Assembly: GCA_044892525.1 (NCBI GenBank)
Contig: CM097885.1
Coordinates: 55,986,001 to 56,050,000 of the forward strand
Origin: Schmidtea polychroa
Taxonomy: Eukaryota
DNA: 64,000 bases
Direction of reading: 5' to 3'
Positions 30,201 through 63,500 of this stretch are shown in pieces (the first letter of the stretch is position 1; each line of letters begins with the position of its first letter). A program made the translations under genes and the position numbers. The notes under the pieces were generated by a model. It worked only from the letters and a program-made list of their open reading frames with translations. It was not told the DNA's origin and made no database searches.

Positions 30201-33200
30201 TCGGTTAACCAGTTGATTAGATCTACATCTATCTTTTCATATTGTTTGTTTTGAACGTATGTAATAAAGGTTTTTATTTTTTTTGTAAATTCTGGCCTAT
30301 TCTTTTCATCAATGTAGTTAATCAATTCCTCCCATTTTAAATCAATTAAGTAATTTACGTATTTATTTGATGTTTCTGTTATTATTTTTTTATTTTGAGT
30401 CGTCACTTCCTCATTTTTAATGTGAATGTTTTTAACATCTTTTAATGTTGTGATGATTCGAGTAATCCAATTTATTAAATCTGTGTCGATTTGTTCGAAT
30501 TGCTTATTTTGAACAAATTTGATAAATGTTTTAATTTTGTCAAATACTTCCGGTCTGCTTTTATCATCAATGTATTGCATAAGTTCTTCCCATTTCAATT
30601 CATTTAGTATCTGGATATATTGAATTGAAAGTTCAGTAATTACTTTAAGAATTTGTTGTTTATTATTTGCGTTTGTGATATTAATTTCTCTGATTCTTCT
30701 TAGCATGACAATTATCTGATTTACCCAGTTGAGTAATGTTGAATCAATTTCCTCGTACTTTTTGTTTTGAGCTAATATTATGAAGTTTTTTATTTTTTTA
30801 TTGATGTCAGGCTTGCTCTGTTCATCGATGTATTTCATGAGTTCTTCCCATTTTTCTTCATTCAAAATTTCCAAATAATTATCTGTCAATTTAATGATTC
30901 TTTCTTTGTAACTTAAATTTGCTTTTTCATTTTGAATTTTTATTTTAACTTCTCTTAATGTATTTATGATTTCAACAATCAAGTTAAGTAATTCAGAATC
31001 AATTTTCTCATATTGTTTGTTTTGAACAAGTGTGATAAAGGTCTTTATTTTCTTTGTCATTTCCGGTCTTTTGGTTTCTTCGATCTGTTTTACTAGTTCT
31101 TCCCAATTTAGTTCTATTAAGAAATTGACGTATTTAATAGATGTATCTGTTATTAATTTTCGATTATCGTTTGTAATTTTTTCATTTTTTACGTGAACCT
31201 CCTTGATTTGTCGCAAAATTATAATAATATGATTAATCCATTTTATCAAATCAGTGTCGATTTTTTCGTATTGCTTATTTTTAACAAAGGTTATGAAGGT
31301 ATTTATTTTATTTATCACCTCCGGCCTGTTACTTTGATCAATATACTTCACCAATTCTTCCCATTTAATCTCTACGAGCACATTAATGAATTTATTTGAT
31401 GTTTCAGTTATTTCTTTTAAATTTGCTTCTTCTGTTTTTGTGTTTTTGATTTGTACTTCTTTAACTTTCTTCAATGTGTTAATTATTTCAGTGATCCAGG
31501 TAATTAAATCTATATCAATTTTTTCAAATTGCTTATTTTCGACAAGAGTAATAAATGTTTTTATTTTATTTAATACTTCTAGTCTGTTGTCGATATTTTT
31601 AAGCAATTCTTCCCATTTCAATTCATTTAGAGTAATAAGCAAGTTATTCGACTTATCGGTTACTGTTTTAATGTCAACAATATTTTCTTCTGTAATTGGT
31701 ATTTCTTTCACTTTAAAGATTTTTTCTAATTCCTTTAACCAAATCAAATCAATTTTTTCTATTTCGTTTAACTTAACAAGTTTGATAATTGTATTAATTC
31801 TTTCTGTCCATTTCGCTTTATCAATATTTTTCGTTTCGTTAATTATTTTCAGCCAATTGGTATTGATAATTGGTTTCAATTTTTCTAAAGAATTTTCTTT
31901 TTGAATTTGTATCTCAAATTTAGGCAACTTATCCTTTATAACTTTTCTTATTGTTTTATAAATAACACGAATTTTTTTATATAAATTTTCATCTATTTTG
32001 TTAAATTTATTTTCTTTCACTAATTTTAAAACTATATCTATTTCTTTTTTAACGTTTTCTCTATCTTTTTCATCGATATTTTTGATAAGATCTGGCCAAT
32101 TCCACTTGATCAATCTATTGACAAATTTTTTGACATTTCTTGTAATAACTGTAATTGTTATTGGTCGCCTAGTAGTAGGTTTTCTGATAATCTTGATTAA
32201 TCTGTTGAATTTCTGTAACCATTTCAAATCAATTTTATCTGGTTGATTAAGTTTGATCAATTGAATGAGTTTATTAATGCGATTGGTCCATTTGACTTTA
32301 TCGATTCCTTTTGTTTCATTGATGACTTTCTGCCAGTTTGTATCGATGATGAGTTTAAGTTTGTTCAATAATTTTTCTTTTTGAACTTGGATTTCTATTT
32401 TTGGTTTTTTATTGTCTTTGATCTTTCGAATAGTTTTGAAGATGACTCGGATTCGTTTGTAAAGATTTTCATCGATTTCCTTGAATTTGTTTTCTTTTAC
32501 TAATTTCAATACTAATTCAATTTCTTTTTTAACGTTTTCTCTATCTTTTTCATCAATATTTTTGATAAGATCTGGCCAATTCCACTTGATCAATCTATTG
32601 ACAAATTTTTTGACATTTCTTGTAATAACTGTAATTGTTATTGGTCCCTTAGTAGTAGGCTTTCTGATAATCTTGATTAATCTGTTGAATTTCTGTAACC
32701 ATTTCAAATCAATTTTATCTGGTTGATTAAGTTTGATCAATTGAATGAGTTTATTAATGCGATTGGTCCATTTGACTTTATCGATTCCTTTTGTTTCATT
32801 GATGACTTTCTGCCAGTTTGTATCGATGATGAATTTAAGTTTGTTCAATAATTTTTCTTTTTGAACTTGGATTTCTATTTTTGGTTTTTTATTGTCTTTG
32901 ATCTTTCGAATAGTTTTGAAGATGACTCGGATTCGTTTGTAAAGATTTTCATCGATTTCCTTGAATTTGTTTTCTTTTACTAATTTCAATACTAATTCAA
33001 TTTCTTTTTTAACGTTTTCTCTATCTTTTTCATCAATATTTTTGATAAGATCTGGCCAATTCCACTTGATCAATCTATTGACAAATTTTTTGACATTTCT
33101 TGTAATAACTGTAATTGTTATTGGTCGCCTAGTAGTAGGTTTTCTGATAATCTTGATTAATCTGTTGAATTTCTGTAACCATTTCAAATCAATTTTATCT

Positions 33201-36200
33201 GGTTGATTAAGTTTGATCAATTGAATGAGTTTATTAATGCGATTGGTCCATTTGACTTTATCGATTCCTTTTGTTTCATTGATGACTTTCTGCCAGTTTG
33301 TATCGATGATGAATTTAAGTTTGTTCAATAATTTTTCTTTTTGAACTTGGATTTCTATTTTTGGTTTTTTATTGTCTTTGATCTTTCGAATAGTTTTGAA
33401 GATGACTCGGATTCGTTTGTAAAGATTTTCATCGATTTCCTTGAATTTGTTTTCTTTTACTAATTTCAATACTAATTCAATTTCTTTTTTAACGTTTTCT
33501 CTATCTTTTTCATCAATATTTTTGATAAGATCTGGCCAATTCCACTTGATCAATCTATTGACAAATTTTTTGACATTTCTTGTAATAACTGTAATTGTTA
33601 TTGGTCCCTTAGTAGTAGGCTTTCTGATAATCTTGATTAATCTGTTGAATTTCTGTAACCATTTCAAATCAATTTTATCTGGTTGATTAAGTTTGATCAA
33701 TTGAATGAGTTTATTAATGCGATTGGTCCATTTGACTTTATCGATTCCTTTTGTTTCATTGATGACTTTCTGCCAGTTTGTATCGATGATGAATTTAAGT
33801 TTGTTCAATAATTTTTCTTTTTGAACTTGGATTTCTATTTTTGGTTTTTTATTGTCTTTGATCTTTCGAATAGTTTTGAAGATGACTCGGATTCGTTTGT
33901 AAAGATTTTCATCGATTTCCTTGAATTTGTTTTCTATTACTAATTTCAATACTAATTCAATTTCTTTTTTAACGTTTTCTCTATCTTTTTCATCAATATT
34001 TTTGATAAGATCTGGCCAATTCCACTTGATCAATCTATTGACAAATTTTTTGACATTTCTTGTAATAACTGTAATTGTTATTGGTCGCCTAGTAGTAGGT
34101 TTTCTGATAATCTTGATTAATCTGTTGAATTTCTGTAACCATTTCAAATCAATTTTATCTGGTTGATTAAGTTTGATCAATTGAATGAGTTTATTAATGC
34201 GATTGGTCCATTTGACTTTATCGATTCCTTTTGTTTCATTGATGACTTTCTGCCAGTTTGTATCGATGATGAGTTTAAGTTTGTTCAATAATTTTTCTTT
34301 TTGAACTTGGATTTCTATTTTTGGTTTTTTATTGTCTTTGATCTTTCGAATAGTTTTGAAGATGACTCGGATTCTTTTATAAAGATTTTCATCGATTTCC
34401 TTGAATTTGTTTTCTTTTACTAATTTCAATACTAATTCAATTTCTTTTTTAACGTTTTCTCTATCTTTTTCATCAATATTTTTGATAAGATCTGGCCAAT
34501 TCCACTTGATCAATCTATTGACAAATTTTTTGACATTTCTTGTAATAACTGTAATTGTTATTGGTCGCCTAGTAGTAGGTTTTCTGATAATCTTGATTAA
34601 TCTGTTGAATTTCTGTAACCATTTCAAATCAATTTTATCTGGTTGATTAAGTTTGATCAATTGAATGAGTTTATTAATGCGATTGGTCCATTTGACTTTA
34701 TCGATTCCTTTTGTTTCATTGATGACTTTCTGCCAGTTTGTATCGATGATGAGTTTAAGTTTGTTCAATAATTTTTCTTTTTGAACTTGGATTTCTATTT
34801 TTGGTTTTTTATTGTCTTTGATCTTTCGAATAGTTTTGAAGATGACTCGGATTCGTTTGTAAAGATTTTCATCGATTTCCTTGAATTTGTTTTCTTTTAC
34901 TAATTTCAATACTAATTCAATTTCTTTTTTAACGTTTTCTCTATCTTTTTCATCAATATTTTTGATCAGATCTGGCCAATTCCACTTGATCAATCTATTG
35001 ACAAATTTTTTGACATTTCTTGTAATAACTGTAATTGTTATTGGTCCCTTAGTAGTAGGCTTTCTGATAATCTTGATTAATCTGTTGAATTTCTGTAACC
35101 ATTTCAAATCAATTTTATCTGGTTGATTAAGTTTGATCAATTGAATGAGTTTATTAATGCGATTGGTCCATTTGACTTTATCGATTCCTTTTGTTTCATT
35201 GATGACTTTCTGCCAGTTTGTATCGATGATGAATTTAAGTTTGTTCAATAATTTTTCTTTTTGAACTTGGATTTCTATTTTTGGTTTTTTATTGTCTTTG
35301 ATCTTTCGAATAGTTTTGAAGATGACTCGGATTCGTTTGTAAAGATTTTCATCGATTTCCTTGAATTTGTTTTCTTTTACTAATTTCAATACTAATTCAA
35401 TTTCTTTTTTAACGTTTTCTCTATCTTTTTCATCAATATTTTTGATAAGATCTGGCCAATTCCACTTGATCAATCTATTGACAAATTTTTTGACATTTCT
35501 TGTAATAACTGTAATTGTTATTGGTCGCCTAGTAGTAGGTTTTCTGATAATCTTGATTAATCTGTTGAATTTCTGTAACCATTTCAAATCAATTTTATCT
35601 GGTTGATTAAGTTTGATCAATTGAATGAGTTTATTAATGCGATTGGTCCATTTGACTTTATCGATTCCTTTTGTTTCATTGATGACTTTCTGCCAGTTTG
35701 TATCGATGATGAATTTAAGTTTGTTCAATAATTTTTCTTTTTGAACTTGGATTTCTATTTTTGGTTTTTTATTGTCTTTGATCTTTCGAATAGTTTTGAA
35801 GATGACTCGGATTCGTTTGTAAAGATTTTCATCGATTTCCTTGAATTTGTTTTCTTTTACTAATTTCAATACTAATTCAATTTCTTTTTTAACGTTTTCT
35901 CTATCTTTTTCATCAATATTTTTGATAAGATCTGGCCAATTCCACTTGATCAATCTATTGACAAATTTTTTGACATTTCTTGTAATAACTGTAATTGTTA
36001 TTGGTCCCTTAGTAGTAGGCTTTCTGATAATCTTGATTAATCTGTTGAATTTCTGTAACCATTTCAAATCAATTTTATCTGGTTGATTAAGTTTGATCAA
36101 TTGAATGAGTTTATTAATGCGATTGGTCCATTTGACTTTATCGATTCCTTTTGTTTCATTGATGACTTTCTGCCAGTTTGTATCGATGATGAATTTAAGT

Positions 36201-39200
36201 TTGTTCAATAATTTTTCTTTTTGAACTTGGATTTCTATTTTTGGTTTTTTATTGTCTTTGATCTTTCGAATAGTTTTGAAGATGACTCGGATTCGTTTGT
36301 AAAGATTTTCATCGATTTCCTTGAATTTGTTTTCTTTTACTAATTTCAATACTAATTCAATTTCTTTTTTAACGTTTTCTCTATCTTTTTCATCAATATT
36401 TTTGATAAGATCTGGCCAATTCCACTTGATCAATCTATTGACAAATTTTTTGACATTTCTTGTAATAACTGTAATTGTTATTGGTCGCCTAGTAGTAGGT
36501 TTTCTGATAATCTTGATTAATCTGTTGAATTTCTGTAACCATTTCAAATCAATTTTATCTGGTTGATTAAGTTTGATCAATTGAATGAGTTTATTAATGC
36601 GATTGGTCCATTTGACTTTATCGATTCCTTTTGTTTCATTGATGACTTTCTGCCAGTTTGTATCGATGATGAGTTTAAGTTTGTTCAATAATTTTTCTTT
36701 TTGAACTTGGATTTCTATTTTTGGTTTTTTATTGTCTTTGATCTTTCGAATAGTTTTGAAGATGACTCGGATTCTTTTATAAAGATTTTCATCGATTTCC
36801 TTGAATTTGTTTTCTTTTACTAATTTCAATACTAATTCAATTTCTTTTTTAACGTTTTCTCTATCTTTTTCATCAATATTTTTGATAAGATCTGGCCAAT
36901 TCCACTTGATCAATCTATTGACAAATTTTTTGACATTTCTTGTAATAACTGTAATTGTTATTGGTCGCCTAGTAGTAGGTTTTCTGATAATCTTGATTAA
37001 TCTGTTGAATTTCTGTAACCATTTCAAATCAATTTTATCTGGTTGATTAAGTTTGATCAATTGAATGAGTTTATTAATGCGATTGGTCCATTTGACTTTA
37101 TCGATTCCTTTTGTTTCATTGATGACTTTCTGCCAGTTTGTATCGATGATGAGTTTAAGTTTGTTCAATAATTTTTCTTTTTGAACTTGGATTTCTATTT
37201 TTGGTTTTTTATTGTCTTTGATCTTTCGAATAGTTTTGAAGATGACTCGGATTCGTTTGTAAAGATTTTCATCGATTTCCTTGAATTTGTTTTCTTTTAC
37301 TAATTTCAATACTAATTCAATTTCTTTTTTAACGTTTTCTCTATCTTTTTCATCAATATTTTTGATCAGATCTGGCCAATTCCACTTGATCAATCTATTG
37401 ACAAATTTTTTGACATTTCTTGTAATAACTGTAATTGTTATTGGTCGCCTAGTAGTAGGTTTTCTGATAATCTTGATTAATCTGTTGAATTTCTGTAACC
37501 ATTTCAAATCAATTTTATCTGGTTGATTAAGTTTGATCAATTGAATGAGTTTATTAATGCGATTGGTCCATTTGACTTTATCGATTCCTTTTGTTTCATT
37601 GATGACTTTCTGCCAGTTTGTATCGATGATGAGTTTAAGTTTGTTCAATAATTTTTCTTTTTGAACTTGGATTTCTATTTTTGGTTTTTTATTGTCTTTG
37701 ATCTTTCGAATAGTTTTGAAGATGACTCGGATTCGTTTGTAAAGATTTTCATCGATTTCCTTGAATTTGTTTTCTTTTACTAATTTCAATACTAATTCAA
37801 TTTCTTTTTTAACGTTTTCTCTATCTTTTTCATCAATATTTTTGATAAGATCTGGCCAATTCCACTTGATCAATCGGTTGACAAATTTTTTGACATTTCT
37901 TGTGATTATATTTATTGTTAGCGGTCTTTTTTTTTCGTTTCTGTATTTTATTTTCCTCAGAAATCTCACAATGAATCGCAGCCTTTGAATGAAATTATTA
38001 TCAATTTCCTTGTATCGTTTTTGATCTACAACTCCAATCATTTTTTCTATTGCGATGATCAAATTATTTCTTTCTTTTTGATCTACGAAATTCATTAGTT
38101 CAGGCCAATTCCATTTTTTTAATAGTTTTACATATCTTCCAATCAAAATAATTCTTCTTTCTGATATTATTGGTTTTATTTTTGTCACTTCTCTTATTTT
38201 CGTTATGATCGGTTTAAGTTCTAATAAGAATGTTGAATCTATTTCGTTGTAACGCTTGGCTTTTATTAATTCTATTACTTGTTTAAATCGAGGAATCCAT
38301 TTATCTTTTTCTACTCCTAATTTTTCCAGAATCTTAATCCAATCAATAGTTAATATCAATTTTATTTCACGTATAATTTCCGCTTTTTCTCTTCCCCCAT
38401 ATACTATATGAATTTTCCACAATCTCTTTAATATTCTTATTGCAAAGTTCACATTGTCTATTAATTCTAAATTAATTTTTTCGTGTTCATTATTTTTCAC
38501 TATTATTATCAATTCATTTAGAGCTTTGATTACTCTTTCTTTGTATTTTTCACTAACATATTGCAATAAATCTGTCCATTTGAATTTCAGTAACCAATCG
38601 ACATGATTTTTCCAGCTTACTAAAATCTTTTGTTTGTAGTTATGTTTACCGTGCATTTTTAGCCTTAATTTATAAATAATTTGTTTCCATTTTAACAGCA
38701 ATTTTGGATCTAGTCTATTAAATTGTTTGTTTTTAATTAAAAGCATAACTTTGTTCAATTTGTTTTTCCATAATATTCTTAATTTTGGATCAAGTTGATT
38801 TATATATCGTTTCATTTGTTCTTTTCCGAATTCATCAGTTAATATATTCCATCTCTCAAATGTATGAATGAATTTTCGATGAGTTCTTGTTCTACTTAAT
38901 ACTTTATATGTTCTTTTCCATTGTTTAACTGTACCTTCATTTAATTTACTGCCACCATCACTTATTTGTTTGAATACTTTTTCAATAGTTTGTCTCATTT
39001 CAGGTCTGTTTTCATTGGTAGATTTATCTATTAAATTCTGCCAATTCCAGTTTTTTACTTGTCGTACTGTTGTTACAAGTGAATGTCTATTCGGACGATG
39101 AATCTAGAGAAATAATTCAATTTTCAATTTATTTTTAGTTACAAATACCATAAATGATCTTCGTTTTCTGTTTAATATAATTGTTATTTTTCGTGGTTGC

Positions 39201-44837: not shown

Positions 44838-46495
44838 GAAAGCAGCACTCAAACATTCGTTTTATGATATATCCATAAGTTTTCCAGTCATCAAGCACGA
44901 AAGACATAAATATTATAGATTTTAGAAACTTCATTAATTTTTTATAAAAATATTATTTAATTTAAACAATCTTTTACTGTTCAATTTTAAAATATTTTAA
45001 TAATCTATAAATTATGAAATAAAAAACTGAAATTTAAATTATTTAACATAATAATTTATTTGATTTAAAAACAATAACAATCCACATACCCACAATTTAC
45101 GACCCAAACTACTTAAAAACATACAAACATGTTGTATATCAATTTTCGGATCCAATGATTTGAGTGTCAAAGCTTCACAAATTACAAGTTCCCAATAATT
45201 AATACAATTTTTAATAACATTTAATTTACTAATACAACTGTTGGAAGTTTCCGTATGTTTTATATGTTGGATTATTATTTTTTTCTTGTTATTGTTTAAT
45301 GTCTAGAAAGGTTGTAGAGCCCATCCGAGTCTCCTGTAAAAAAATACTGTTTCGGGACAGCTGGGGTGAATGTGTATTATTTATAGTATTATGACTACAA
45401 TTAAATATAAAATAAAATAACTGTTAGATAAAATTACAAAATTTTATTAACAAAAAGAAATTACTATTTCGTATAACTTTATTTGTAGTAGAAATAATAC
45501 AGATATTCCGTAGAACTATTGACTGAATATAATCAACGTAACCAATGAATTCGTTTATTATTGAACGGACTTTAAGATTGATTGTAGTACTTTGCTTTAA
45601 TAATAAAGGTAGATGATTAGATAAAGGATTTTGAGATTGGAATTTCACTGATTAAACTCTTGATGGTTTTGTTTTGACTCACACTAATATAGTAATTATT
45701 AATGAGTTATATCCTCTTCCTTTTTATAATAGTCTTATGGATAACCTTTCTTCTCCTTTGTATTTAGTATGATTCCCAATTATATCTTCTGTTTTTTGTA
45801 TTGTTTGGTTTCTTGGAATTTCTTAATCTTTTACTGACTTTAAATTTCAATTTTTTAATGATCTTTTTGTATTTTGTTATTTTACTATGGTGATAATTTA
45901 CTATAGTAAGTTATCGCTGTATAGTTTTTTTTTAAATTTCCTTTCCCCGACGCTACGGGAACGATAATGATAAAAAACAGAACCTAATTGGTGTATTGTT
46001 AAAAGCAACAATAACGATAAAAATACAACAATCTACTGCAACAACCATTATTACTGTTGTTGCCAACCTTTGGCTCGTGATCCTAACAAGGATATCTTGA
46101 GACCTTATGAAAATTAATTTTTTTTAATAAAAAATGAGATTTTTGTAGAATTTTATAAATTTTCATTTCGAAGTTACTAGATTATACAACTTTGTGGTTT
46201 CTTACTATCATTTTAATTAAAGCTATACTACTGTTATTACTTTGACTGCACTGCAGCTACGTAATGATAGATAATTCGATAGATAAATTATTATGATTCA
46301 ATTATATAAAATTTGTAACTAAAATATTGTAACTATAAATTATCAGATATTTTAGAATTCAAATTCATTATATTTAGCTGCACAAAGGCAGAGAAGAAGA
46401 GACCCGATTAATGTTATAGTTTGAGTCACCGAAACTTGGTAAATGTTATTAAGGGGTTACAGATCCAGAGAGGTTGGGAACCTCTGCATTAATGT

Positions 46496-47475
46496 TGTTG
46501 AGGATACCTAAATAATAATTCATAAAGAAATAAATAAAATTACCTGGGGGAAGATCGCCATGACAAACGGGACGATCTATAGAGACTCAGAAAAGAAAAC
46601 GGAAGTGAAAAGAAATCAAAAATGAGAAAGAGAAAGGAAATAAAAGTTATCAAACAGGAAAATAAAAATCAAGGTCAGTACTAATTAATTAGTACAAAAA
46701 GGAAAAAGGAAAACAACAATATCCTTATCTCGACAGCTTGCCGGTGATAATAGAATTGATGGGAGAAGGCGGTCGAACAAGAAAGGAAAAAGGGAAAAAC
46801 AACTTGACAGCTGTCAGAGATAAAAATGGTACAGTCGGGGAAAGCAGGAGATGGAAAGTGGAAAAACACTCAATTATCTGGAGTGTCACAAGCAAAAACA
46901 ACTATATAAAGAAAGCTGGTGGACGAGAAATCAGAACAGATTGGGAACAGATTGGGAACAGATTGAGAACAGATTGGGAACAGATTGGGAACAGATTGAG
47001 AACAGATTGGGAACAGATTGGGAACAAATTGGGAACAGATTGGGAATAGATTGAGAGGCAAAAGTGGAGTAAAATTAGAGACGACAGCGTAAAAAGAGGA
47101 ATCAAAGCCGAGTGAAAAGAGAAGTGACAAGAATCTTTTATAAAATTGAATATAAAGTAAAAGTGGACTAGATAAGTTGTGTGGTCAAAGCAAATAGAAC
47201 AATCGATCAATATATCCTGTAATTGAGTAGTTGACGGCTAGTGATTATTGTTGTGGTTACAGAAAGGGCTATTCTTCACGTAGTGTCGAAATAAGCTCTG
47301 TGTGGTAAATTGGTTTATAGTCAATTGGTTTTAATTGAAATTTGTACTATTACGTGTGGATATTAATAAAGCTTATTGTGTTCGAGAGTGTTGAATTGCA
47401 ATTTAATAAACACGCTTTGGAGCCAGATTAAAGGTTTGAATTTACAAATATTGTCACCAACTATATAACACAACA
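46496..47475 (+). repeat. 5' LTR
   Basis: TGTTGAGGATACC...ATAACACAACA; same length as the 3' LTR; one substitution noticed (47400 A vs 56737 G). Confidence 0.97.
46934..47054 (+). repeat. 11 x 11-bp tandem GAACAGATTG(G/A) inside the LTR (also 56271-56391)
   Basis: Direct count; most units contain ATTGG (reverse CCAAT). Confidence 0.95.
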
Positions 47476-47480
47476 TATTT

Positions 47481-47498
47481 TGGTGAGCCCGACGTGAT
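47481..47498 (+). promoter_or_regulatory. Primer-binding site complementary to the tRNA-Trp 3' end
   Basis: TGGTGAGCCCGACGTGAT; the reverse complement ATCACGTCGGGCTCACCA matches the metazoan tRNA-Trp 3' end (ATCACGTCGGGGTCACCA) at 17/18. Lies 5 nt after the LTR. Confidence 0.88.
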
Positions 47499-47653
47499 GA
47501 AAAGTTGGTGAAGAGATTGTGAAAAAGAAAATTGGAAAAATAAAGTGTGTTAAATTGAAATTATTAGAGTGATTTTGGAAAGGTAAATTGTTTATTGTAA
47601 TAATAATTTGAGATTTAGATTTTGTGAAATTTGAAAAGAAATAATTTATTAAA

Positions 47654-50600
47654 GTGAACCGATATTATTTGCGAAGCCAGAGTAAAAAGGAAGCTATAAT
47701 GAGCAGTGAAGATTTACCAGTTTCAGTTATTAAAGAAAATAATGATTTTGCCAGTTGTCAAAGATTGCCAGTAGAGCAATATGGAGGAGATCCAATTATT
47801 TTTGTTGATTTTATGAGCGATTACTATATGTATGCAACGGCTTATGGATGGTCTCAAGCAATAATGATTCAAAGATTACCCTTATATCTTAAAGGAGCTG
47901 CTAGAGAGGTTTGGCAACAAATCGACAGGAAAACAATCGGCAATGATTGGGCCAAATTAAAAGATGCATTGGCTGCTAAACTTATTGGAGGAGATATAAA
48001 GAGATTAATGCGTCAGAAATTTTATAATAGAGTTCAAAATCCAAATGAAACAGTGAGCGAATTTGCATATCATTTATCGACCCTTGCCAGCAAATCCTTT
48101 GAGGAAGATTCAAAACAACCAGGATTAGCCCAACAGATGCAGGAACTGATTCAAGATCAATTTTTGTCCGGAGTAAATAAAGAAATAAAAACGGCATTAT
48201 GTTTTGTAGAGTATGACAATTTCGATGAACTAGTTAAAAAGGCAATGAAAATCGAATTGAATCTAAAGAGCTCTAAAAGTAAATCTGAGGTATTTGCAAT
48301 AATTCCAGTACAAAGAGAGAGATCAGTAACCCCAACCCAAGACAATTGGGAATCAGGAAATAGATTTCAACGATCAAAGAGCCCATCACCAAAATGGAGA
48401 AACGATAATAATATGAACAGAGCAAGCCAAAATTCACCAGGCACCGAGAGAGCTAAAGTTATTCAGTGTGATATTTGTAAGAAAATTGGCCATTATACAA
48501 ATCAGTGTTGGTTTAAAAATAATTCTGAAAGAGTACCCAGGAGATTGAGCCCAGATTGGCAAAGAGATAATAGAGGAACGAATTTTCGGAGAGCAATTGC
48601 TAATGTGAAGTCAAATTTTAATGAAGTACAATGTTATCGCTGTGGTAGAAAAGGACATGTTTCTAGAAATTGTTTTTCAAGATCAAGATCACCATCAATG
48701 TCACCATCACCACAAAGAGATAATGTGAATTTAAATGGACAAATTCGATGTCATTTATGCAGAAATTACGGGCATATTGCAAGATCTTGTCCCAGGAATT
48801 CCGATAAATTTCAAAGACCGAGTTTGAAACGAACAATTAGATTTCAGGATGAAAACCAATCAAAGAATAATGTTGCTTATGTTCAGAAAGATAAATTTAG
48901 AGAGAAAATTGAGAACGATGTCAAACAATTGAATCAAAAATTGAATAAATTGATGGCGAAATTTGAATCAGATGAAGAAACAGATTCTCATATGATGACA
49001 AGACGAAAAGTGAAGACAGATGAATCCAAACTTGATGATGTTACAAGAAACAGAGTTAAAACGGATATGCAAAGTGAAAAGAGTACAATACTTATTGCTA
49101 AGGACAGAAAATTAGTAACAGAACCTGATGCAAATTCTCAGAAATTGACAGAAGTGTTGATGAAGCTAACGGAAATACCGTTGAGTTTAACCAAAATTAA
49201 AACTGTTATTAAACTTTGTACGAAATGTTATGCAGCGAGTGTGGAAAAGCGAGATGTATTTGGAAAGTATATGAAAGAATTTGGCCAAACTTTACGAAAA
49301 TTCACATGGTTAGACCCGATATTTATTAAGGCAAATACATCAGACGCCATCAAATCCGAGTATCAAATTGAAGCATACGAAAAAATACGCGAACTAAAAA
49401 GAGAAATAATGCACAAATGTGAAGTTTGGGCAGTAGAACTTAGATTTATGAATCGAGTGTTGGAAGACGACGAATTTTTGATAGATTGTGGATTGATCCC
49501 CGGCGTTGAAAATGAGATACAAATAGTGAGCATGATTGCCAATGAAAAACCAGTCAAATATGATGTCAATAAAATTAAATTTGAATTAAATGAAGCATTG
49601 ATCAAGGGAGATACAGGTGATATTATTGATAAATTGAATAATATTTTGAATTTAGAATTTGAAGTGGAAGATAAATTGAAAATTTTAGATTGTGTCAGAC
49701 CCTATGTAAATTATGATAATGAATATAGTGAAATGATAAAAAAGCTTATTCGTAAATTTGGACAAGAATTTAGAGAAAAAGGAGTTTATATTGAGCCATT
49801 CGTAATAATGTTAAAAATAAATGATCAAGAAGTGGAATGTACCAACGAGCATTGGTGTACGAAAGTGAGTAAACTACGACGAAGAGCAGCAGATATTATG
49901 GGCAATGATGGAATAATTGTATTGGTATACAAAGGTTTTGAGTTAGATGATGATGAGTATTTATTTGATTGTGGCTGCGTACCACGAAAATTTGATAAAA
50001 ATGGATCTTTGGCGAATCAGGAAACGTTTATTAATGATTTAGTTGCGATGAAACAATTTGAATCAAACGAAGTAGAAGAAAGCTTTAAAATGGAATTACC
50101 AAACTGGAAAAATGAGATAATGAGTAATGATGATGAGATGCACGATGAACAAGAAATGAGAAGAGATGAAATAGAAAATGAAACTGGAGAGATTATTGTT
50201 AAAAATGAGATGAAGACTGAAAAAGATGAAATAGAAAATGAAGCGGAGCAGATTATTGTTGAAAATGAAATGAGAACTGAAGTTAAAAATGAGGCATATA
50301 TGACCAAGATGACGATTGATAATGATATTAAAGAAAAACAATGCAGAAATTTGTATGAATTAAGATGTAAAATAATACAGAAATTTCAAGAGGAGAAAGA
50401 TCAGAAAGACTCAAAGGGAACTGAGAAAATTGTACGTGCTCTAGTAAACGAATTATATGGTGAATCAATAGAGAGAATACAAGTTGAGAAATATGTGAGG
50501 AAAATTGCAAAGAAAATTAAAAAGAGATTTTGTGTAGTGTTAAAACAAGCAAAAGAAAGTATGGAATTTTGTGATGACAATGTGATAACTGAGATGATGA

Positions 50601-51646
50601 CAAGAAAAATAGATAGAGATATGGTATTAACAATTATGAGTTATATTTTGTTAGAAATCGGAACCTATGATTGCTCAGATATGGAAAAACAAGAGGAAAT
50701 AATTAAAACGGCAAGTAAAGTTTTACATAAACATGTTGGCAAATGGATAAAAGAGAATGGAGGTTGGAAGAAGCTGATTAAACAAAAATTTGAACCAGTT
50801 GTAAAAATAAGAGAAAATTATGATGGTGTATTAAAAAGAAAACCCGTAAAAGTTCCGTTTTTAATGTCTATGATCTTAATATTATGTGCAATTATAACTA
50901 AAACCTCTTCGTTAATTGCATATGATTGCACTCAAATAAAGATTGGGAAAGTTTATTCTATGGTGGATTGGCAGTTCGCAACAAAATTAAAGACAATTCA
51001 AAAACTGTATAATTTCATACACATTCATCTTTGGACAAAAGTGTGGAGGAATCTTGTCGTAATAGAACCGATGATGAAGAAAGTTTATATGTATTGGACA
51101 GCCAAAGAACAGCAGAAAATCAAAATAATTTTTCAATACCCTGTAATTGAGATATTGAGTAAAGGAAAATCTTTTGTCAAAAATGGGAATCTACAGAAAT
51201 CTTTTCATGGTTATGAAACCTGTACGAACAATCATTGGTCAAAATTAGAATCTAAAGCTGAAATAAAATACGTTAATAACAAAGGAAATCGTGTTCAAAT
51301 GCAGATTTATAAAGAAATAATTGTATTTAACAAGACAAAAGTCGGAAAAGGGGTAAATGTTTTTATAAATGATAAAATTCAGGTAGTGTGGGACGAACAT
51401 CGACAACAAGCAAAGAGTAGCCTTCAAAATTCAAAACCGAAAGCAACATTAAATGAATTAATGACAAGAATTATGCATTGCAAGCGAAAAACTAACGCTG
51501 ACCGGTGGCATATTGTGTTAATCGAAAAAAGACATATTGATCTTCATAATAATAAATTCTTTGAGAACATAACTATTAATCAAAAGTTAAAGTTGTCTTT
51601 GACATTCTCACGTGTAAAAACCAAACAGTCTATCATTAAACAATGA
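47654..51646 (+). CDS. gag: Gag polyprotein fused to two ubiquitin-like domains, a Bcl-2-like domain and the start of an env-like glycoprotein
   Basis: First in-frame ATG at 47699. Capsid-like AYGW..LPLYLKGAAREVW..Q..NETVSEF..L. CCHC at about 48467, 48632 and 48749. UBL1 about 49318-49533, UBL2 about 49798-49990. BH2-like KWIKENGGWKKL at about 50741-50776. Hydrophobic segment then LIAYDC at about 50856-50930. Confidence 0.88.
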   Translation: MNRYYLRSQSKKEAIMSSEDLPVSVIKENNDFASCQRLPVEQYGGDPIIFVDFMSDYYMYATAYGWSQAIMIQRLPLYLKGAAREVWQQIDRKTIGNDWAKLKDALAAKLIGGDIKRLMRQKFYNRVQNPNETVSEFAYHLSTLASKSFEEDSKQPGLAQQMQELIQDQFLSGVNKEIKTALCFVEYDNFDELVKKAMKIELNLKSSKSKSEVFAIIPVQRERSVTPTQDNWESGNRFQRSKSPSPKWRNDNNMNRASQNSPGTERAKVIQCDICKKIGHYTNQCWFKNNSERVPRRLSPDWQRDNRGTNFRRAIANVKSNFNEVQCYRCGRKGHVSRNCFSRSRSPSMSPSPQRDNVNLNGQIRCHLCRNYGHIARSCPRNSDKFQRPSLKRTIRFQDENQSKNNVAYVQKDKFREKIENDVKQLNQKLNKLMAKFESDEETDSHMMTRRKVKTDESKLDDVTRNRVKTDMQSEKSTILIAKDRKLVTEPDANSQKLTEVLMKLTEIPLSLTKIKTVIKLCTKCYAASVEKRDVFGKYMKEFGQTLRKFTWLDPIFIKANTSDAIKSEYQIEAYEKIRELKREIMHKCEVWAVELRFMNRVLEDDEFLIDCGLIPGVENEIQIVSMIANEKPVKYDVNKIKFELNEALIKGDTGDIIDKLNNILNLEFEVEDKLKILDCVRPYVNYDNEYSEMIKKLIRKFGQEFREKGVYIEPFVIMLKINDQEVECTNEHWCTKVSKLRRRAADIMGNDGIIVLVYKGFELDDDEYLFDCGCVPRKFDKNGSLANQETFINDLVAMKQFESNEVEESFKMELPNWKNEIMSNDDEMHDEQEMRRDEIENETGEIIVKNEMKTEKDEIENEAEQIIVENEMRTEVKNEAYMTKMTIDNDIKEKQCRNLYELRCKIIQKFQEEKDQKDSKGTEKIVRALVNELYGESIERIQVEKYVRKIAKKIKKRFCVVLKQAKESMEFCDDNVITEMMTRKIDRDMVLTIMSYILLEIGTYDCSDMEKQEEIIKTASKVLHKHVGKWIKENGGWKKLIKQKFEPVVKIRENYDGVLKRKPVKVPFLMSMILILCAIITKTSSLIAYDCTQIKIGKVYSMVDWQFATKLKTIQKLYNFIHIHLWTKVWRNLVVIEPMMKKVYMYWTAKEQQKIKIIFQYPVIEILSKGKSFVKNGNLQKSFHGYETCTNNHWSKLESKAEIKYVNNKGNRVQMQIYKEIIVFNKTKVGKGVNVFINDKIQVVWDEHRQQAKSSLQNSKPKATLNELMTRIMHCKRKTNADRWHIVLIEKRHIDLHNNKFFENITINQKLKLSLTFSRVKTKQSIIKQ

Positions 51647-52090
51647 AGAGAACTCATCTCGTAACAATTGTATTGAATTACTATTCATATGTATCATTGT
51701 GAGAATAATAAGCAGCATCATACTCATCTATATCATCATCAAAGTGAAAACAAAAGGAAAGAACAATCATGTTCATCAATCGCGATATTCAAAACCACAG
51801 ACAATGATGTGGTTAGAAACATTTGTTTAGTAAGATATCATGTTATTGCATGTTATTGACCTAACATTTCTTTCATACTCCTTCAGTGATCATTGCTTTA
51901 TTTAAACAAATAATTGTATAATATTTAATATTTCTAATGAATATACGGGTCATGTAATTTGATTGGGTAAATAATCACACACCGTCACGAAAATATTTGG
52001 GGATAAAAGTGAAAATTGTTCAAATGCTTTGACGACAAAAGAAATTTTTGAAAAAAGAAAATTTTTACAAAAGAAAATTCAAATTACCAA

Positions 52091-53515
52091 ATGGAAGAAA
52101 TTAAGAGAAGCACGAAGCTTTATGAAAACTATGACAGAGAAAGAAGAAGTCGAACAGAGAAAAGCATAGTAGTAGAAGAAAATTTAAAAATACCGAATTG
52201 GGCGAGAATAGGAAATGAAGAGATGAGGCTATGCCTTTTTGAGTTAGAAAGAAAATCGAACATAAAATTGGCAGAGCTATTAGTAAGGAAAAACGAAGAG
52301 CAATGGCAAATCCACATAGTTAGAGGAACGGTAGAAATTGTGGAGAATGATGGATCTAATTACAAAACAGTACCGGAAAAATCGTCGTGGCAAATTAGGA
52401 AAGAAGTGTGGCACAAAAAATTAAGAGCGGCAAACGGAATTGCGTGGATGGCATTGGAATGCCGAATAAAAACAAAAGCAAATCTCGAATATCAAAGAAT
52501 TCTGTCAAAGGAAGAAGAAAGCGAGTTGCTCCCAATAACAAGAGATATGCTGAAGTTAAAAAAATCATTTATCAGAAGGAAAATGTCCAATGAGGAGATC
52601 AGAAGAAACATCATATTCATGGACGCGGAATATGGTGTAAGTGAAGAAAACCGGATGATCCCGTTGTCGATATGCCTAATAGCATATACCGGGAAAATTT
52701 TATATAATTCATTAATAACCCCAAGAGAAAAACTGAAGAATTTCGTTACCCAAATTCACGGGATAACAGAAAAGATGACAAGAAACCAAGAAGATCAATA
52801 CCAAAGCATTTAGAAAGTGCGAGAACTGACAGCCAGAAAAATTCTAGTTGGACATGATCTGCAGAATGAGTTGGCATATAGTGGGGTGCAGGTTAATGAA
52901 TTGTGGGGAATACGAGATTTGGCAGCAGCTAAAGCATTAGAAAAAAGGAAAGTGACAAGAAATGGACAATGGTTCAAGTTGTCGATCGTAGCTGAAGAAC
53001 TGTGCGGGATAAAAATGCAGAAGGGACATCACTCTGCAGTGGAAGATACCGAAGCAGTTAGGAGAATCTATTTGGCTCTCGAAAGTCATTGGAAAGATGA
53101 TATTGTATATGAAGAACAAATGGTTAAGAAAACATGTTCCTTGGAGGATTATAGAAAAAGGAAATTAGTGGTGGCAAACGAAAAATCAGAAGAACCACGA
53201 GAGAAAAGAGGTGTTGAGATACGAGAGCTGGAGCCGATTTTCCATAGCATCGAACTAATAAAGAACATTGAATGGCATGAAGCGACTGTAGAAACGGAAA
53301 ACGAATTGAAAATGGCGAGAAAAACGGAGCTGCGTATAAAGAAGATGGCAAAACGAAGACGCAGAGATATAGAAACCCAAACGATAACTACGGAAACTCC
53401 GGTAGGAAATACGATCATTGTCAACGGGGAAGAATGGAAGCTTAAAAAAATTTTAGCTACCTATCAAAGAGGTAATGAAAAGATAAGAATTACGAAGCTA
53501 CCCGGCAGAAGATGA
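52091..53515 (+). CDS. DEDDh 3'-5' exonuclease (REX4/ISG20-like) ORF with one in-frame TAG at 52811-52813
   Basis: ExoI IFMDAEY, IHGIT, ExoII ILVGHDLQNEL, IRDLA, ExoIII HSAVEDT. The two listed ORFs are in the same frame, separated only by TAG-AAA. Confidence 0.85.
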
Positions 53516-55214
53516 ATGAATAATTGTAATAAATAAATAAAATTTACTATTCATAATTGTTTATTTTTTTTGTACCCCAAAAATCTTGATACCAAATAAA
53601 TAATAAAGTAGTGAGATGGCAAAGGCAAATTAATTAAATCATAGGTATAAGTCGAAAATTTAATAATATAATATTATATAGTATAATAAAAATTTCAATA
53701 CTAATACGGTTGTAGTAAGAACCCTACGGGAGCTACTCAAATAAATAAAAAATATGAATAAATAAATATATATATAATTTTGAATTAATAAAAAGGCCTT
53801 GAAGTTTCCAGATCACGAACTTCGGGATCTGAAGACTTCATGGCAAAATTACCTCGCCGCCTGCAGCATGGCGTAACCAGCGTGCGAGGTAATTTGGAAA
53901 AGACAAGATAAATAATAAACCCTATATAGAGAGGAAGAGGCATTATTACAGAATCATTATTTCAATTAATTATTATTATTGCAATTATTGATTAATTAAT
54001 ATTATTATCATCATCATTAGAATCATTGTAATTATTGAAAGTATTATTATAGTATTTTGCTACCTTTATTACTACTACTGTTANNNNNNNNNNNNNNNNN
54101 NNNNNNNNNNNNNNNNNNNNNNNNNNNNNNNNNNNNNNNNNNNNNNNNNNNNNNNNNNNNNNNNNNNNNNNNNNNNNNNNNNNNNNNNNNNNNNNNNNNN
54201 NNNNNNNNNNNNNNNNNNNNNNNNNNNNNNNNNNNNNNNNNNNNNNNNNGATAACCTGTTTCCAATTGGAAAATAACTAATGAGCATCGCTTTAAACTTT
54301 GACTAATTAATGCTATTAACATAATTGTTCCATTTACCAAATAAGGCACTTTATTTCTAATAATAGGATAACCAAAAAAAAAATTTTTTTTCTGAGAAAT
54401 AATTTTATCCCTTTTCACCACCGATATTTCTAATCCTTGAATATTGTAACATGATATGGCTTTTCTTAACAATTTATTAACCTTTTCCGCGTGGCTCCAT
54501 CGGTCAATTTGTAAGGAAATAGTCACGGGAATTTGTCAAATTAACATAATAATAATTAGAGCATTCAAATTTAAAATATTTTTTTTATCAAATTAATGAA
54601 CAATTAGAAAAGTGCCGTTCATTTTATAATTTATAATTTTTCGTACTGACGAATGTTGAAATTCCTCAAGGTAGCCAATCAGAATGTTAAAATTCCGCAT
54701 GCTAGCCAATCAGAAAACAAATGCGGACCAATCTCAATTCTTCATGCGCAATGAACATAAAAATTAGGCACATAAGTGCAACTTTGATAAAAACCTCGCT
54801 ATCTGGACACCTGTCCAGATAGCGGCAAATAAGTAAAAATAAAAGAGGAAAAAAGAAATTGAATTAAAAGGCACAAAGTGCCGATGCAAAATTAATTGAT
54901 AAAGACACATAAGTGCCAATTTAGATAATTTCAAATTTACATAATAGATTCGCAAAATTTCACTTGGAAATATTTATAGACATTGAAGAAAATAATGTCG
55001 TGTCTAAACACTTATTCGGAAATTTGGGTTTCAAAAAGGCGACAGAATCAATTTATTTAGTTTTTGATAAGCTTGGCAGTATTGCAATACAGGTCGAGAT
55101 TTTTAAGTTTCCTATTTTTATCAAAATAATTTTTCAAATAAATTTATAGTCTAGATTTATAAAGCAGATAAATCTGCAAAATTAATATTTTCCTCGAAGA
55201 GGAATTTTTTAATT

Positions 55215-55233
55215 AATAATTATTATTATTATA

Positions 55234-55301
<68 letters not shown>

Positions 55302-55329
55302 TCTTGTTACTATTATTATTACTATAATT
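55215..55329. repeat. (ATT)n microsatellite abutting an assembly gap
   Basis: Direct observation. Confidence 0.95.
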
Positions 55330-55818
55330 NNNNNNNNNNNNNNNNNNNNNNNNNNNNNNNNNNNNNNNNNNNNNNNNNNNNNNNNNNNNNNNNNNNNNNN
55401 NNNNNNNNNNNNNNNNNNNNNNNNNNNNNNNNNNNNNNNNNNNNNNNNNNNNNNNNNNNNNNNNNNNNNNNNNNNNNNNNNNNNNNNNNNNNNNNNNNNN
55501 NNNNNNNNNNNNNNNNNNNNNNNNNNNNNNNNNNNNNNNNNNNNNNNNNNNNNNNNNNNNNNNNNNNNNNNNNNNNNNNNNNNNNNNNNNNNNNNNNNNN
55601 NNNNNNNNNNNNNNNNNNNNNNNNNNNNNNNNNNNNNNNNNACATAGAGGATATTGATATGTATTAAATTAAAAGGGAGATTAATGTGTTGCGCAATAAA
55701 ATCAAACAACTATGGGAAGGGATAATTATTTTATTGTAGAATTTTAAAACAAAGAAGGTAGCTAAAAAAAATAAATAGATTTCAAAATCTTAATTTATTT
55801 CGAGGACGAAATTTTTTT

Positions 55819-55830
55819 AAAGGGGGGAGA
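55819..55830 (+). promoter_or_regulatory. Polypurine tract
   Basis: AAAGGGGGGAGA ending 2 nt before the 3' LTR. Confidence 0.9.
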
Positions 55831-55832
55831 TA

Positions 55833-56812
55833 TGTTGAGGATACCTAAATAATAATTCATAAAGAAATAAATAAAATTACCTGGGGGAAGATCGCCATGA
55901 CAAACGGGACGATCTATAGAGACTCAGAAAAGAAAACGGAAGTGAAAAGAAATCAAAAATGAGAAAGAGAAAGGAAATAAAAGTTATCAAACAGGAAAAT
56001 AAAAATCAAGGTCAGTACTAATTAATTAGTACAAAAAGGAAAAAGGAAAACAACAATATCCTTATCTCGACAGCTTGCCGGTGATAATAGAATTGATGGG
56101 AGAAGGCGGTCGAACAAGAAAGGAAAAAGGGAAAAACAACTTGACAGCTGTCAGAGATAAAAATGGTACAGTCGGGGAAAGCAGGAGATGGAAAGTGGAA
56201 AAACACTCAATTATCTGGAGTGTCACAAGCAAAAACAACTATATAAAGAAAGCTGGTGGACGAGAAATCAGAACAGATTGGGAACAGATTGGGAACAGAT
56301 TGAGAACAGATTGGGAACAGATTGGGAACAGATTGAGAACAGATTGGGAACAGATTGGGAACAAATTGGGAACAGATTGGGAATAGATTGAGAGGCAAAA
56401 GTGGAGTAAAATTAGAGACGACAGCGTAAAAAGAGGAATCAAAGCCGAGTGAAAAGAGAAGTGACAAGAATCTTTTATAAAATTGAATATAAAGTAAAAG
56501 TGGACTAGATAAGTTGTGTGGTCAAAGCAAATAGAACAATCGATCAATATATCCTGTAATTGAGTAGTTGACGGCTAGTGATTATTGTTGTGGTTACAGA
56601 AAGGGCTATTCTTCACGTAGTGTCGAAATAAGCTCTGTGTGGTAAATTGGTTTATAGTCAATTGGTTTTAATTGAAATTTGTACTATTACGTGTGGATAT
56701 TAATAAAGCTTATTGTGTTCGAGAGTGTTGAATTGCGATTTAATAAACACGCTTTGGAGCCAGATTAAAGGTTTGAATTTACAAATATTGTCACCAACTA
56801 TATAACACAACA
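55833..56812 (+). repeat. 3' LTR
   Basis: Matches 46496-47475 at an offset of 9337. Confidence 0.97.
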
Positions 56813-57170
56813 ATGTGTTCACTAATATTGGTCAATCCGTTCAGTTGGCAATGTTCACGAACCCGATTACAGAGATGAAGGGAAGTCTCTCCGAAGTACT
56901 CATTGCATTGCACTCATTATATGGAAATTGATAAATGAGATCTGAACACAATCCACCGGAGTTTAAGATTTATTAATAAAAATATTGCATATTTAACACG
57001 AATTTTACACTTGGCAAGATTGTTTAATAAAAATGATTTTGGATATTCATTTTTCATCAAAAATTCAACCAATTTATTAAAAATATTTACTGAATTTTCA
57101 ATAGTAGAAGATAAAGACAATGAACGATAAATCAATCCCTTCACCATTGTTCATTATGGGTTTTGAATCA
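56813..57170 (-). mobile_element. Penelope-like element remnant that is the insertion target of the LTR element (continues at about 46380-46495)
   Basis: MVKGLIYRSL..LMKNEYP (RT C-terminal region), then CNEYFGETSLHLCNRVREH..ISEH|INAE, which reads through the empty site once one TSD copy is removed. Confidence 0.7.
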
Positions 57171-62335: not shown

Positions 62336-62959
62336 GCACACTTCTCTCTACTATTAACAAATATAATTTAAATAGTTTTTACAACATTTAGGGAAAACTT
62401 ATATAGAAATATTAATTTTTAAATTTAGGTTAATAAAATTTACGATTTTCTAGTTTTCCCCCAAAATCAACATTTGAAAACTAAGTTGATAAAGAGATTT
62501 TAGGACAATGTGAAGTACTAAAAACTATTAAATTTATTAAAAATTGAAGTTAAATCTCACGAAATTGTCATCATTATCTATACAACTCAAATTTGAGTTT
62601 TCGGAATTTTCGTCCAATATTTCTTTCCCCCATTTTTTCTAAACATTTCTGCAAATGATTTATTATAATGCGTCTATTCATTACAATGATATTACATATC
62701 GAAATTTAACGTGTATTTTTTACTGTGTTGTGTTTGAGTGTCAGTTTTTTTCTATCACATCCTCACTTTTTATATTAAATGCGTGTATTCACTGCACCGT
62801 TAAAAATTAACACATGGGTTAGTTTATGTATTTATATAATATAAACTTATTGATTTTTTCAAACATATGTGTCTATTCATTGCAAACGGGTGTATAAATG
62901 AGAACATCTAAGTGAGTTTGTATGTTTGTATAATACACCAAAGCGCAATTGATAAGTGT

Positions 62960-63500
62960 TTTATTGACATTTATATCTAATTCGGTTCTTGAGAGATTGT
63001 CGGCTGCTATGTTTGCTGCTCCCGCTACATAATTGATTCTACAATTAAATTGGGATATGTAATTTAATTGCCTTATTTGTCTTGGTGATGGATTTTTCAT
63101 TTGAATCGCGTTTATAAGAGGTTCGTAGTCCGTATAAATCTTTAAGTTCCTCACCTCTAGTAGATGTTGAAAGTGTTTTATAGCCTCATAAATTGCGAGC
63201 AGTTCTCAATCGAATGTAGAGTATCTTGTCTGGTGTATTTTTAATTTATTGGAGAAGAAACAGATCGGTTTTTTTACCGAATTCATTGTCTTGGTAAAGA
63301 GTGGCTCCCATTGCGAAACCGGCACAGTCTGTTGTAAGGTTGTAGTCTAGTCTTGAATCCGGGTATCCAAGTAGTGTAGCTTGAGACAGACTTGGTTTTG
63401 CTTTTTCCAATTTTTAAATTGCTTCCCCAGTCCAGCTTATTTTGACCAGTCTTGTTTTGATTAGGTCGTTTAGGGGGCTAAGAGCTGACTATAGTTTGGT
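62960..63500 (-). pseudogene. Ty3/Gypsy RT-connection/RNase H remnant
   Basis: LTTDCAGFAMGATLYQ..PICFFSNKL..RYSTFD*ELLAIYEAIKHF..LKIYTDYEPL..RQIRQLNYISQFNCRINYVAGAANIAADNLSR. Confidence 0.85.

Follow-up and report, generated by a model that had tools for sequence, protein, structure and literature searches.

The closest described system to the retroelement reported here is Burro/GYPSM1, a group of giant Ty3/gypsy elements of planarians, in which open reading frame (ORF) 1 runs through Gag, three CCHC knuckles, MATH, Ubi/SUMO-like and BCL-2 domains, an in-frame mononegavirus-like env, protease (PR), a dUTPase-like domain, reverse transcriptase (RT), RNase H (RH) and integrase (IN), and which has been suggested to meddle with host apoptosis and ubiquitination (PMC6431247 section 7). 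No DEDD ORF is named for Burro in that section. The IAP of Burro1 has been reported to protect stem cells or aid planarian regeneration, as summarised in the available part of PMC13465017. Among other elements, RLG_Quinta of wheat is described as a Gag-keeping non-autonomous partner of RLG_Cereba (available part of PMC11302176), and the rotifer elements Juno and Vesta as gypsy-type elements with a 3' DEDD exonuclease ORF and a paramyxovirus-like env (available part of PMC5408684). Here, we describe a long terminal repeat (LTR) retroelement at positions 46496-56812 (+) of a 64,000-nucleotide stretch of the Schmidtea polychroa genome (GCA_044892525.1, contig CM097885.1, 55,986,001 to 56,050,000; hereafter the window). 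It is very probably a recently inserted member of a pol-less subfamily, which arose by an in-frame deletion of 5.9 kb from a compact (~16 kb) Burro-type Ty3/gypsy element and was likely spread by the enzymes of pol-bearing copies. The window element itself is not a new kind of system and its striking architecture is largely published: the order Gag-3xCCHC-Ubi/SUMO-BCL2-Env-pol is already on record for Burro (PMC6431247), so that the new architecture envisaged in a preliminary description of the locus gives way, in part, on a ground which that description had itself named beforehand. The remaining interest lies in a half-size Burro clade, an ISG20-like ORF, a post-integrase membrane domain and two pol-less lineages that end behind the Bcl-2 helix.

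A search of the genome with gag DNA gave 1146 candidates, 40 of which were scored, and 20 loci were fetched at 20 kb each: seven carry pol, nine have the junction of the window element and four are otherwise truncated or interrupted. The RT sequences of the seven pol-bearing loci, together with L041/L042, are 96-100% identical among themselves, and one further pol-bearing copy of 16.1 kb has LTRs that are 99.9% identical and an open ORF2 of 513 codons. The order in this parent is Gag-3xCCHC-UBL-Bcl2-Env-PR-RT-RH-IN (UBL, ubiquitin-like domain), then a post-integrase domain and then ORF2; a single frame gives Pfam matches to the Monjiviricetes fusion glycoprotein (PF24664, E 7e-89) and then to PR, RT, RH and IN, the pol order of Ty3/gypsy elements, which is deleted from the window copy. 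The latter lacks positions 5446-11391 of the 16.1-kb copy, i.e. ~5.9 kb comprising most of env and all of pol, and at its junction (50968-50977, +) the first 20 codons of env are fused in frame to a point midway through the post-integrase domain. A genome search for this junction returned 136 candidates, and all 40 that were scored, a set that includes the window locus itself and some copies that are duplicated or in tandem, span it at 91-100% identity on all four large contigs; the same two parental positions are united in 16/16 further fetched loci. Since the junction is common to all 40 scored loci, it marks a subfamily and not an assembly gap. The proposed search for autonomous relatives and further copies thus found both, and the claimed absence of pol was borne out, as comparison with the family sequences found no env body, PR, RT, RH or IN inside the window element. 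Both N stretches of the element sit behind ORF2, where a pol-bearing copy spans only ~200 and ~330 bp, and they cannot hide pol because its place at 50968/50977 is free of N. Splicing was considered as the origin of the deletion and rejected, as the deleted stretch does not have GT..AG ends in the parent.

The signals required in cis, which had been called intact, are all present. The two 980-bp LTRs with TG..CA ends (5' LTR 46496-47475, 3' LTR 55833-56812, both +) differ at one position, the target-site duplication ATGT occurs on both flanks (46492-46495 and 56813-56816), and between them lie a primer-binding site (PBS; 47481-47498, +) complementary to tRNA-Trp(CCA) and a polypurine tract (PPT; 55819-55830, +), the latter placed by sequence and by comparison with relatives. 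The element thereby has the full set of Ty3/gypsy LTR features. The complement of the primer site has 821 genome matches in tRNA context by pattern search, ARAGORN places tRNA-Trp(CCA) at six positions in one of two scanned loci, and the first 18 PBS bases are identical in 6/6 elements compared (the window element and representatives of families A, B, D, S and T). PBS, PPT and LTR termini of the pol-less copies are the same as those of the parent, and these shared ends, combined with many insertions of one deletion, are what a non-autonomous partner would display. Several other copies of the window lineage have LTR pairs that are 99.6-99.9% alike. Additionally, the tRNA-Trp(CCA) gene forms a tandem array with a 284-bp period near 55.02 Mb of C4 in this genome (L102, L103), while no tRNA gene or Rfam family was detected within the 64-kb window.

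The window copy is also a mosaic, with a switch from pol-less-type to pol-bearing-type sequence at 51719-51865 (+). Across 282 informative sites, nearly all of those at 49874-51719 are of the pol-less type, and 26/26 of those at 51865-55767 are of the pol-bearing type. Correspondingly, the stretch 49874-51719 is 99.5% identical to young pol-less copies versus 84-85% to pol-bearing ones, and the sequence from 51865 onward is 99.4-99.6% identical to two pol-bearing copies versus 91-96%. The simplest reading is that pol-less and pol-bearing RNAs were co-packaged in one particle and that template switching between them produced the mosaic; the pol-less RNA would enter particles together with the enzymes of the pol-bearing copies and be copied by them. 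Against this reading, one pol-bearing copy is located on this contig at a distance of ~190 kb, so that the mosaic could instead stem from gene conversion or from a chimeric assembly. The mosaic structure is the only feature that points to co-packaging, and trans-mobilisation is likely yet putative. Taken together, the LTRs, the deletion, the shared PBS, PPT and LTR ends and the mosaic support the earlier description of a young, non-autonomous and likely trans-mobilised element with an env-bearing ancestor. RLG_Quinta is similar in having an open Gag without RT or IN, a PBS and LTR termini as in the autonomous partner and recombination between lineages, and differs in that the window element is from an animal, belongs to an env-derived lineage and encodes, in its open frame, a Bcl-2 fold along with a pair of UBL units (compared with the available part of PMC11302176). 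TelKA2n is likewise a non-autonomous, pol-deleted partner, but one that keeps env and not Bcl-2 (available part of PMC5408684).

ORF1 of the window element (47645-51646, +) comprises 1333 codons from stop to stop, or 1315 counted from the first ATG at 47699. Only Retrotrans_gag (E 9e-8) and zf-CCHC (E 8e-7) exceed the Pfam cut-off in it; they correspond to a Gag capsid with three CCHC knuckles at 47699-48790 (knuckles at 48467-48508, 48632-48673 and 48749-48790). Next come two units, each of a helical bundle and a UBL domain, at 49058-49537 (UBL 49313-49537) and 49565-49993; the second is a copy of the first (27% identity over 100 aa, E 6e-8), and the pair is, judged by its sequence, an internal duplication. 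A Bcl-2-fold domain (50393-50788) and a hydrophobic helix (50843-50908) follow. Hydropathy and the modelled helix suggest that the latter is the signal peptide of env and likely a membrane anchor of the upstream polyprotein. The frame then passes through the first ~20 env codons (50909-50968), collinear with the Monjiviricetes_fusion start in pol-bearing copies, into a partial post-integrase beta-rich domain of the parent (50969-51646, 43% identity to the parent domain). It is closed by a frameshift near 51620, ahead of a C-terminal membrane helix that is present in sister pol-less copies. The order given in the preliminary description therefore holds for Gag-3xCCHC-UBL-UBL-Bcl-2, but the start of env amounts to ~20 residues only and the last ~225 residues derive from the post-integrase domain.

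The UBL and Bcl-2 assignments were below the Pfam cut-off on the window proteins (ubiquitin E 0.006, Bcl-2 E 0.007; RNase_T was likewise below it), yet the folds are backed by a confident model. The ORF1 model, built from a 22-row alignment, has a mean pLDDT of 74, with ~90 in both UBL repeats and values of 70-88 across the bulk of the Bcl-2 part, and consists of two helical-bundle plus beta-grasp units, then a helical domain and a terminal helix. ISG15 and di-ubiquitin are the top Foldseek rows for the modelled UBL-Bcl-2 region. In VIA-align comparisons, UBL unit 1 matches the Rad23 UBL (Z 11.9, rmsd (root-mean-square deviation) 1.7, 76 aligned), unit 2 matches Fubi (Z 10.3, rmsd 1.7, 72 aligned), and the Bcl-2 part matches Bfl-1 (Z 12.7, rmsd 3.0, 132 aligned) and also KSHV Bcl-2 (Z 12.0) and BHRF1 (Z 11.8); a structural Z below 13 is, by the aligner's own warning, common among helical bundles, and the sequence evidence agrees with the Bcl-2 call. 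When a six-row profile covering the UBL-Bcl-2 region was run against 1.84 billion proteins, 30 of them matched, and the 18 of these that were scanned include one canonical Bcl-2 protein (E 7.8e-5), six poly-ubiquitin-like proteins and several pieces of Gag/Bcl-2/env polyproteins from other assemblies. The helical bundles ahead of the two UBL domains (49058-49300 and 49565-49780) are modelled with confidence, are conserved in distant relatives and belong to no assigned family, and the one before UBL2 had no usable ESM Atlas match.

ORF2 (52091-53515, +) is an interrupted gene for a DEDDh exonuclease of the REX4/ISG20-like type. Its motifs, D-x-E (52616-52636), an E replacing the D of ExoII (52850-52870) and H..D (53030-53047), are divided in the window copy by an in-frame stop at 52811-52813, which falls between catalytic motifs 1 and 2 and leaves halves of 253 and 233 codons, whereas in families A, B and D they stand in a single open frame. 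The ORF2 of a sister in which the frame is open matches ISG20L2 (E 2.3e-7) as well as ISG20 (E 3e-6), exceeds the Pfam cut-off for RNase_T and has four homologues in a set of 7617 candidates; judged from its sequence, one of the four is REX4-like. Identification of the second ORF as a DEDDh exonuclease was thus correct as to the domain and incorrect as to an intact frame. Nor is the exonuclease a retained toolkit component of the pol-less element: the gene is broken here, and the DEDDh core is present in only 2/27 junction-bearing pol-less copies, 19/27 skipping ORF2 by a second deletion and six being obscured by truncation or nested insertions. The stop is common to the window copy and one of the five pol-bearing copies that cover the site. 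This and the mosaic suggest that the exonuclease was imported from a pol-bearing template in which it was likely disrupted beforehand; the DEDDh gene would belong to the pol-bearing families and be a broken passenger in the window copy. Compared with the ORF3 of Juno and Vesta, which is an RNase D-like DEDDy (available part of PMC5408684), ORF2 of the compact clade is a DEDDh nearest to ISG20L2, ISG20 and the REX4 type, and because of this difference it is likely a capture separate from that of the rotifers.

The pol-bearing parent belongs to a compact clade that shares with Burro a Gag with three CCHC knuckles, a ubiquitin-like domain ahead of BCL2, an in-frame mononegavirus-type env and PR-RT-RH-IN; in general terms, Gag with two to three CCHC, UBL upstream of Bcl-2 and env between gag and pol were all found in the parent frame. 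The sister families B/C and D/E are at ~61% amino-acid identity, with ORF1 of 3419-3437 codons and the same ORF2, and family T (ORF1 3346 codons) has no ORF of at least 150 codons downstream of ORF1. Unlike Burro, the compact parents are 14-17 kb long with an ORF1 of 3346-3437 aa against 4873, families A-E (not T) carry the DEDDh ORF2, and the post-integrase membrane domain is a different one; the window copy additionally is without the env body and pol. The features of Burro1 proper (more than 30 kb, ORF1 of ~4900 aa, MATH/BIR/ankyrin) are absent from the parent, which measures 16.1 kb and whose ORF1 pieces and ORF2 have no Pfam match to MATH, BIR or ankyrin, domains that the same scan detects in L081-L082. 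Further, no Pfam dUTPase match was found between PR and RT, where there is a spacer of ~200 aa. A Burro1-like giant element does occur in this genome (L081:3050 to L083), adjoining a copy of family S, and contains MATH, a Bcl-2-like region, env, pol, ankyrin, a TRAF-like ORF and a BIR-RING ORF. Between Bcl-2 and integrase it can be aligned collinearly with compact family D, at 36% identity. Of the RTs compared, that of the giant element is closest to the compact clade (51.5%), and in an RT tree of 19 rows without published Burro sequences the compact clade groups as its sister (support 93/87, not starred). The compact clade, its DEDDh ORF, its post-integrase membrane domain and the pol-less lineages are undescribed in the literature searched, outside which lie Grohme 2018, Lee 2026 and Repbase, Dfam and GyDB; Burro families that are compact or lack pol may be listed already in the supplements of those two papers. 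The available parts of PMC8532177 and PMC11410931 held nothing further on element structure.

Between families, env evolves at an omega of 0.06-0.09 and the DEDDh core at 0.09-0.28, values that, like the other omega values between families given here, are rough because synonymous distances are near saturation. The post-integrase region, made up of a signal-like hydrophobic stretch, a beta-rich part of ~300 residues and a final membrane helix (L010:308-1507), evolves fast, with an omega of 0.35-0.48. It belongs to no Pfam family, a comparison with 5646 candidates (123-723 aa) gave no homologue, and its model has a pLDDT of 37 and no Foldseek match at E<=0.001. As a lead only, ESM Atlas placed it with FN3-containing clusters at 0.90-0.91, with low recognition.

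Searching the genome with the Bcl-2 domain gave matches at 38-39% whose open frames measure close to 1320 codons, and these belong to family S, a second, independent and recently active pol-less lineage with an open Gag-UBL-UBL-Bcl-2 frame. Ten S copies (L061-L080) were picked by frame length, which biases the sample towards open frames; all ten have Gag-2xCCHC-UBL-UBL-Bcl-2-helix plus remnants, without pol or DEDDh, and in eight of the ten the LTR pairs are 99.1-99.8% alike. In an unbiased search, the first 68 matches were at 73-100% identity, and 14 of them had frames of at least 1300 codons, none exceeding 1333. The family pol was absent from the 10 kb read for each of 18 more S copies (L106-L123), and no autonomous S parent was found among the first 68 matches, 150 of 1474 candidates having been scored. 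The nearest pol-bearing family to S is T, at 59%, with a synonymous distance (dS) of about 0.8-1.2 and an omega of 0.06-0.37 across all domains. Primer site and purine tract of S are the same as those of the window lineage, and both lineages break right behind the same hydrophobic helix after Bcl-2.

What the pol-less copies are selected for was addressed with 27 junction-bearing copies of the window lineage and 28 S copies, a variant being called shared when found in at least two copies. Here, the open frame and Gag are selected in both pol-less lineages. The ratio of non-synonymous to synonymous variation (pN/pS) in the capsid is 0.09 for shared variants and 0.59 for singletons in the window lineage, and 0.14 and 0.51 in S; stops are rarer among shared than single variants (5/414 vs 37/776 in the window lineage, 1/164 vs 17/381 in S). 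Over all domains of the window lineage, pN/pS is 0.33 for shared variants vs 0.81 for singletons, with shared values of 0.33 in UBL1, 0.25 in UBL2, 0.27 in Bcl-2 (singletons 0.98) and 0.53 in the tail. A stricter filter dropped two near-duplicate copies and all variants occurring in seven pol-bearing copies; for UBL1, UBL2 and Bcl-2 combined, the variants then found in at least three pol-less copies (20 synonymous, 20 non-synonymous, no stops) had a pN/pS of 0.23 vs 0.82 in singletons (p 0.0007). Along the branch that leads to the youngest six of the pol-less copies, 6/9 Bcl-2 changes are synonymous (p 0.002-0.01), as are 15/55 in the tail.

It is quite possible, if somewhat short of probable, that only Gag matters and that UBL, Bcl-2 and tail stay open through the shared frame and through refreshment by recombination from pol-bearing copies. 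In S, clear constraint is confined to the capsid, with shared pN/pS of 0.95 in the tail and 1.32 in the linker; the window copy is itself a recombinant, and Gag-only non-autonomous partners are known from RLG_Quinta (available part of PMC11302176). The filtered contrast in UBL1, UBL2 and Bcl-2, the mostly synonymous polarised changes in Bcl-2 and the shared breakpoint just behind the hydrophobic helix speak for a role of the cargo. Several further observations count against such a role. The shared variants in S Bcl-2 look near neutral (3 synonymous, 12 not; pN/pS 0.99), those in the S UBL units are no different from singletons, UBL2 has one synonymous and four non-synonymous changes on the young branch, and the shared variants may stem from selection in unsampled pol-bearing lineages and have been imported by recombination. 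Additionally, the Bcl-2-fold domain preserves a BH2-like motif, WIKENGGW, but its BH1-like motif is degenerate in the alignment, without the Gly-Arg usual for BH1, so that BH3 binding is not assured. Use of the Bcl-2/UBL cargo by the pol-less elements is therefore supported in part, in the window lineage and not in S. The cross-copy comparison proposed at the outset thus gives purifying selection on the capsid in both lineages and constraint on Bcl-2 in one, and of the accessory genes said to be kept, the UBL and Bcl-2 domains are a mixed case and the exonuclease is not retained.

In the reading that we prefer, that of a pol-less partner moved by pol-bearing copies, the element would supply Gag for packaging its own RNA and its frame would stay open mainly for that reason, with the UBL and Bcl-2 domains travelling along. 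With the env signal helix behind it, the Bcl-2 domain is likely tail-anchored in a membrane, and from there it may reduce death of the cell that produces it. A bolder version, in which Burro-type elements repeatedly shed pol-less lineages selected for a membrane-anchored Gag-UBL-UBL-Bcl-2 as cell-survival modules, and pol-bearing partners carry an ISG20-like nuclease and an FN3-like surface protein against RNA sensing, is doubtful at present; if true, defective elements would be dedicated survival modules for the element community or for host stem cells. We regard as improbable that the pol-less lineages are kept partly for host benefit, with a membrane-anchored Bcl-2-like protein protecting stem cells in the manner of the Burro1 IAP. 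Two independent, recently active lineages do retain the same module, and the Burro1 precedent exists (PMC13465017, available part), but the copies decay after insertion as selfish elements do (singleton pN/pS 0.81 and 37 stops in 27 copies), S Bcl-2 looks neutral and BH1 is degenerate. That pol is missing merely through an assembly gap or mis-join at a single locus is scarcely conceivable, despite the two N stretches within the element, as these lie where the parent holds only 200-330 bp and as an N-free junction recurs at every scored locus, short of a systematic assembly error. The genome holds a natural deletion series, from pol with DEDDh through pol only to pol-less twice, in a compact clade that is without Burro1's IAP yet has Bcl-2 and UBL domains, and this series makes testable the idea that Burro cargo interferes with host apoptosis and ubiquitin systems (PMC6431247).

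Outside the element, the window contains two related giant open frames of 2741 and 3899 aa (5443-13668 and 27404-39103, both on the minus strand), with near-identical tandem repeats of 160 aa (480 nt) and several RKRR-type sites; they are likely genes of the host that encode a structural or storage protein subject to processing. A 218-aa frame at 18983-19639 (-) has a resemblance to Mutator-type transposases and may be a fragment of one. Further fragments resemble integrase (17462-17563, 82% over 34 aa) and RT/RNase H (62948-63265, 32% identity).

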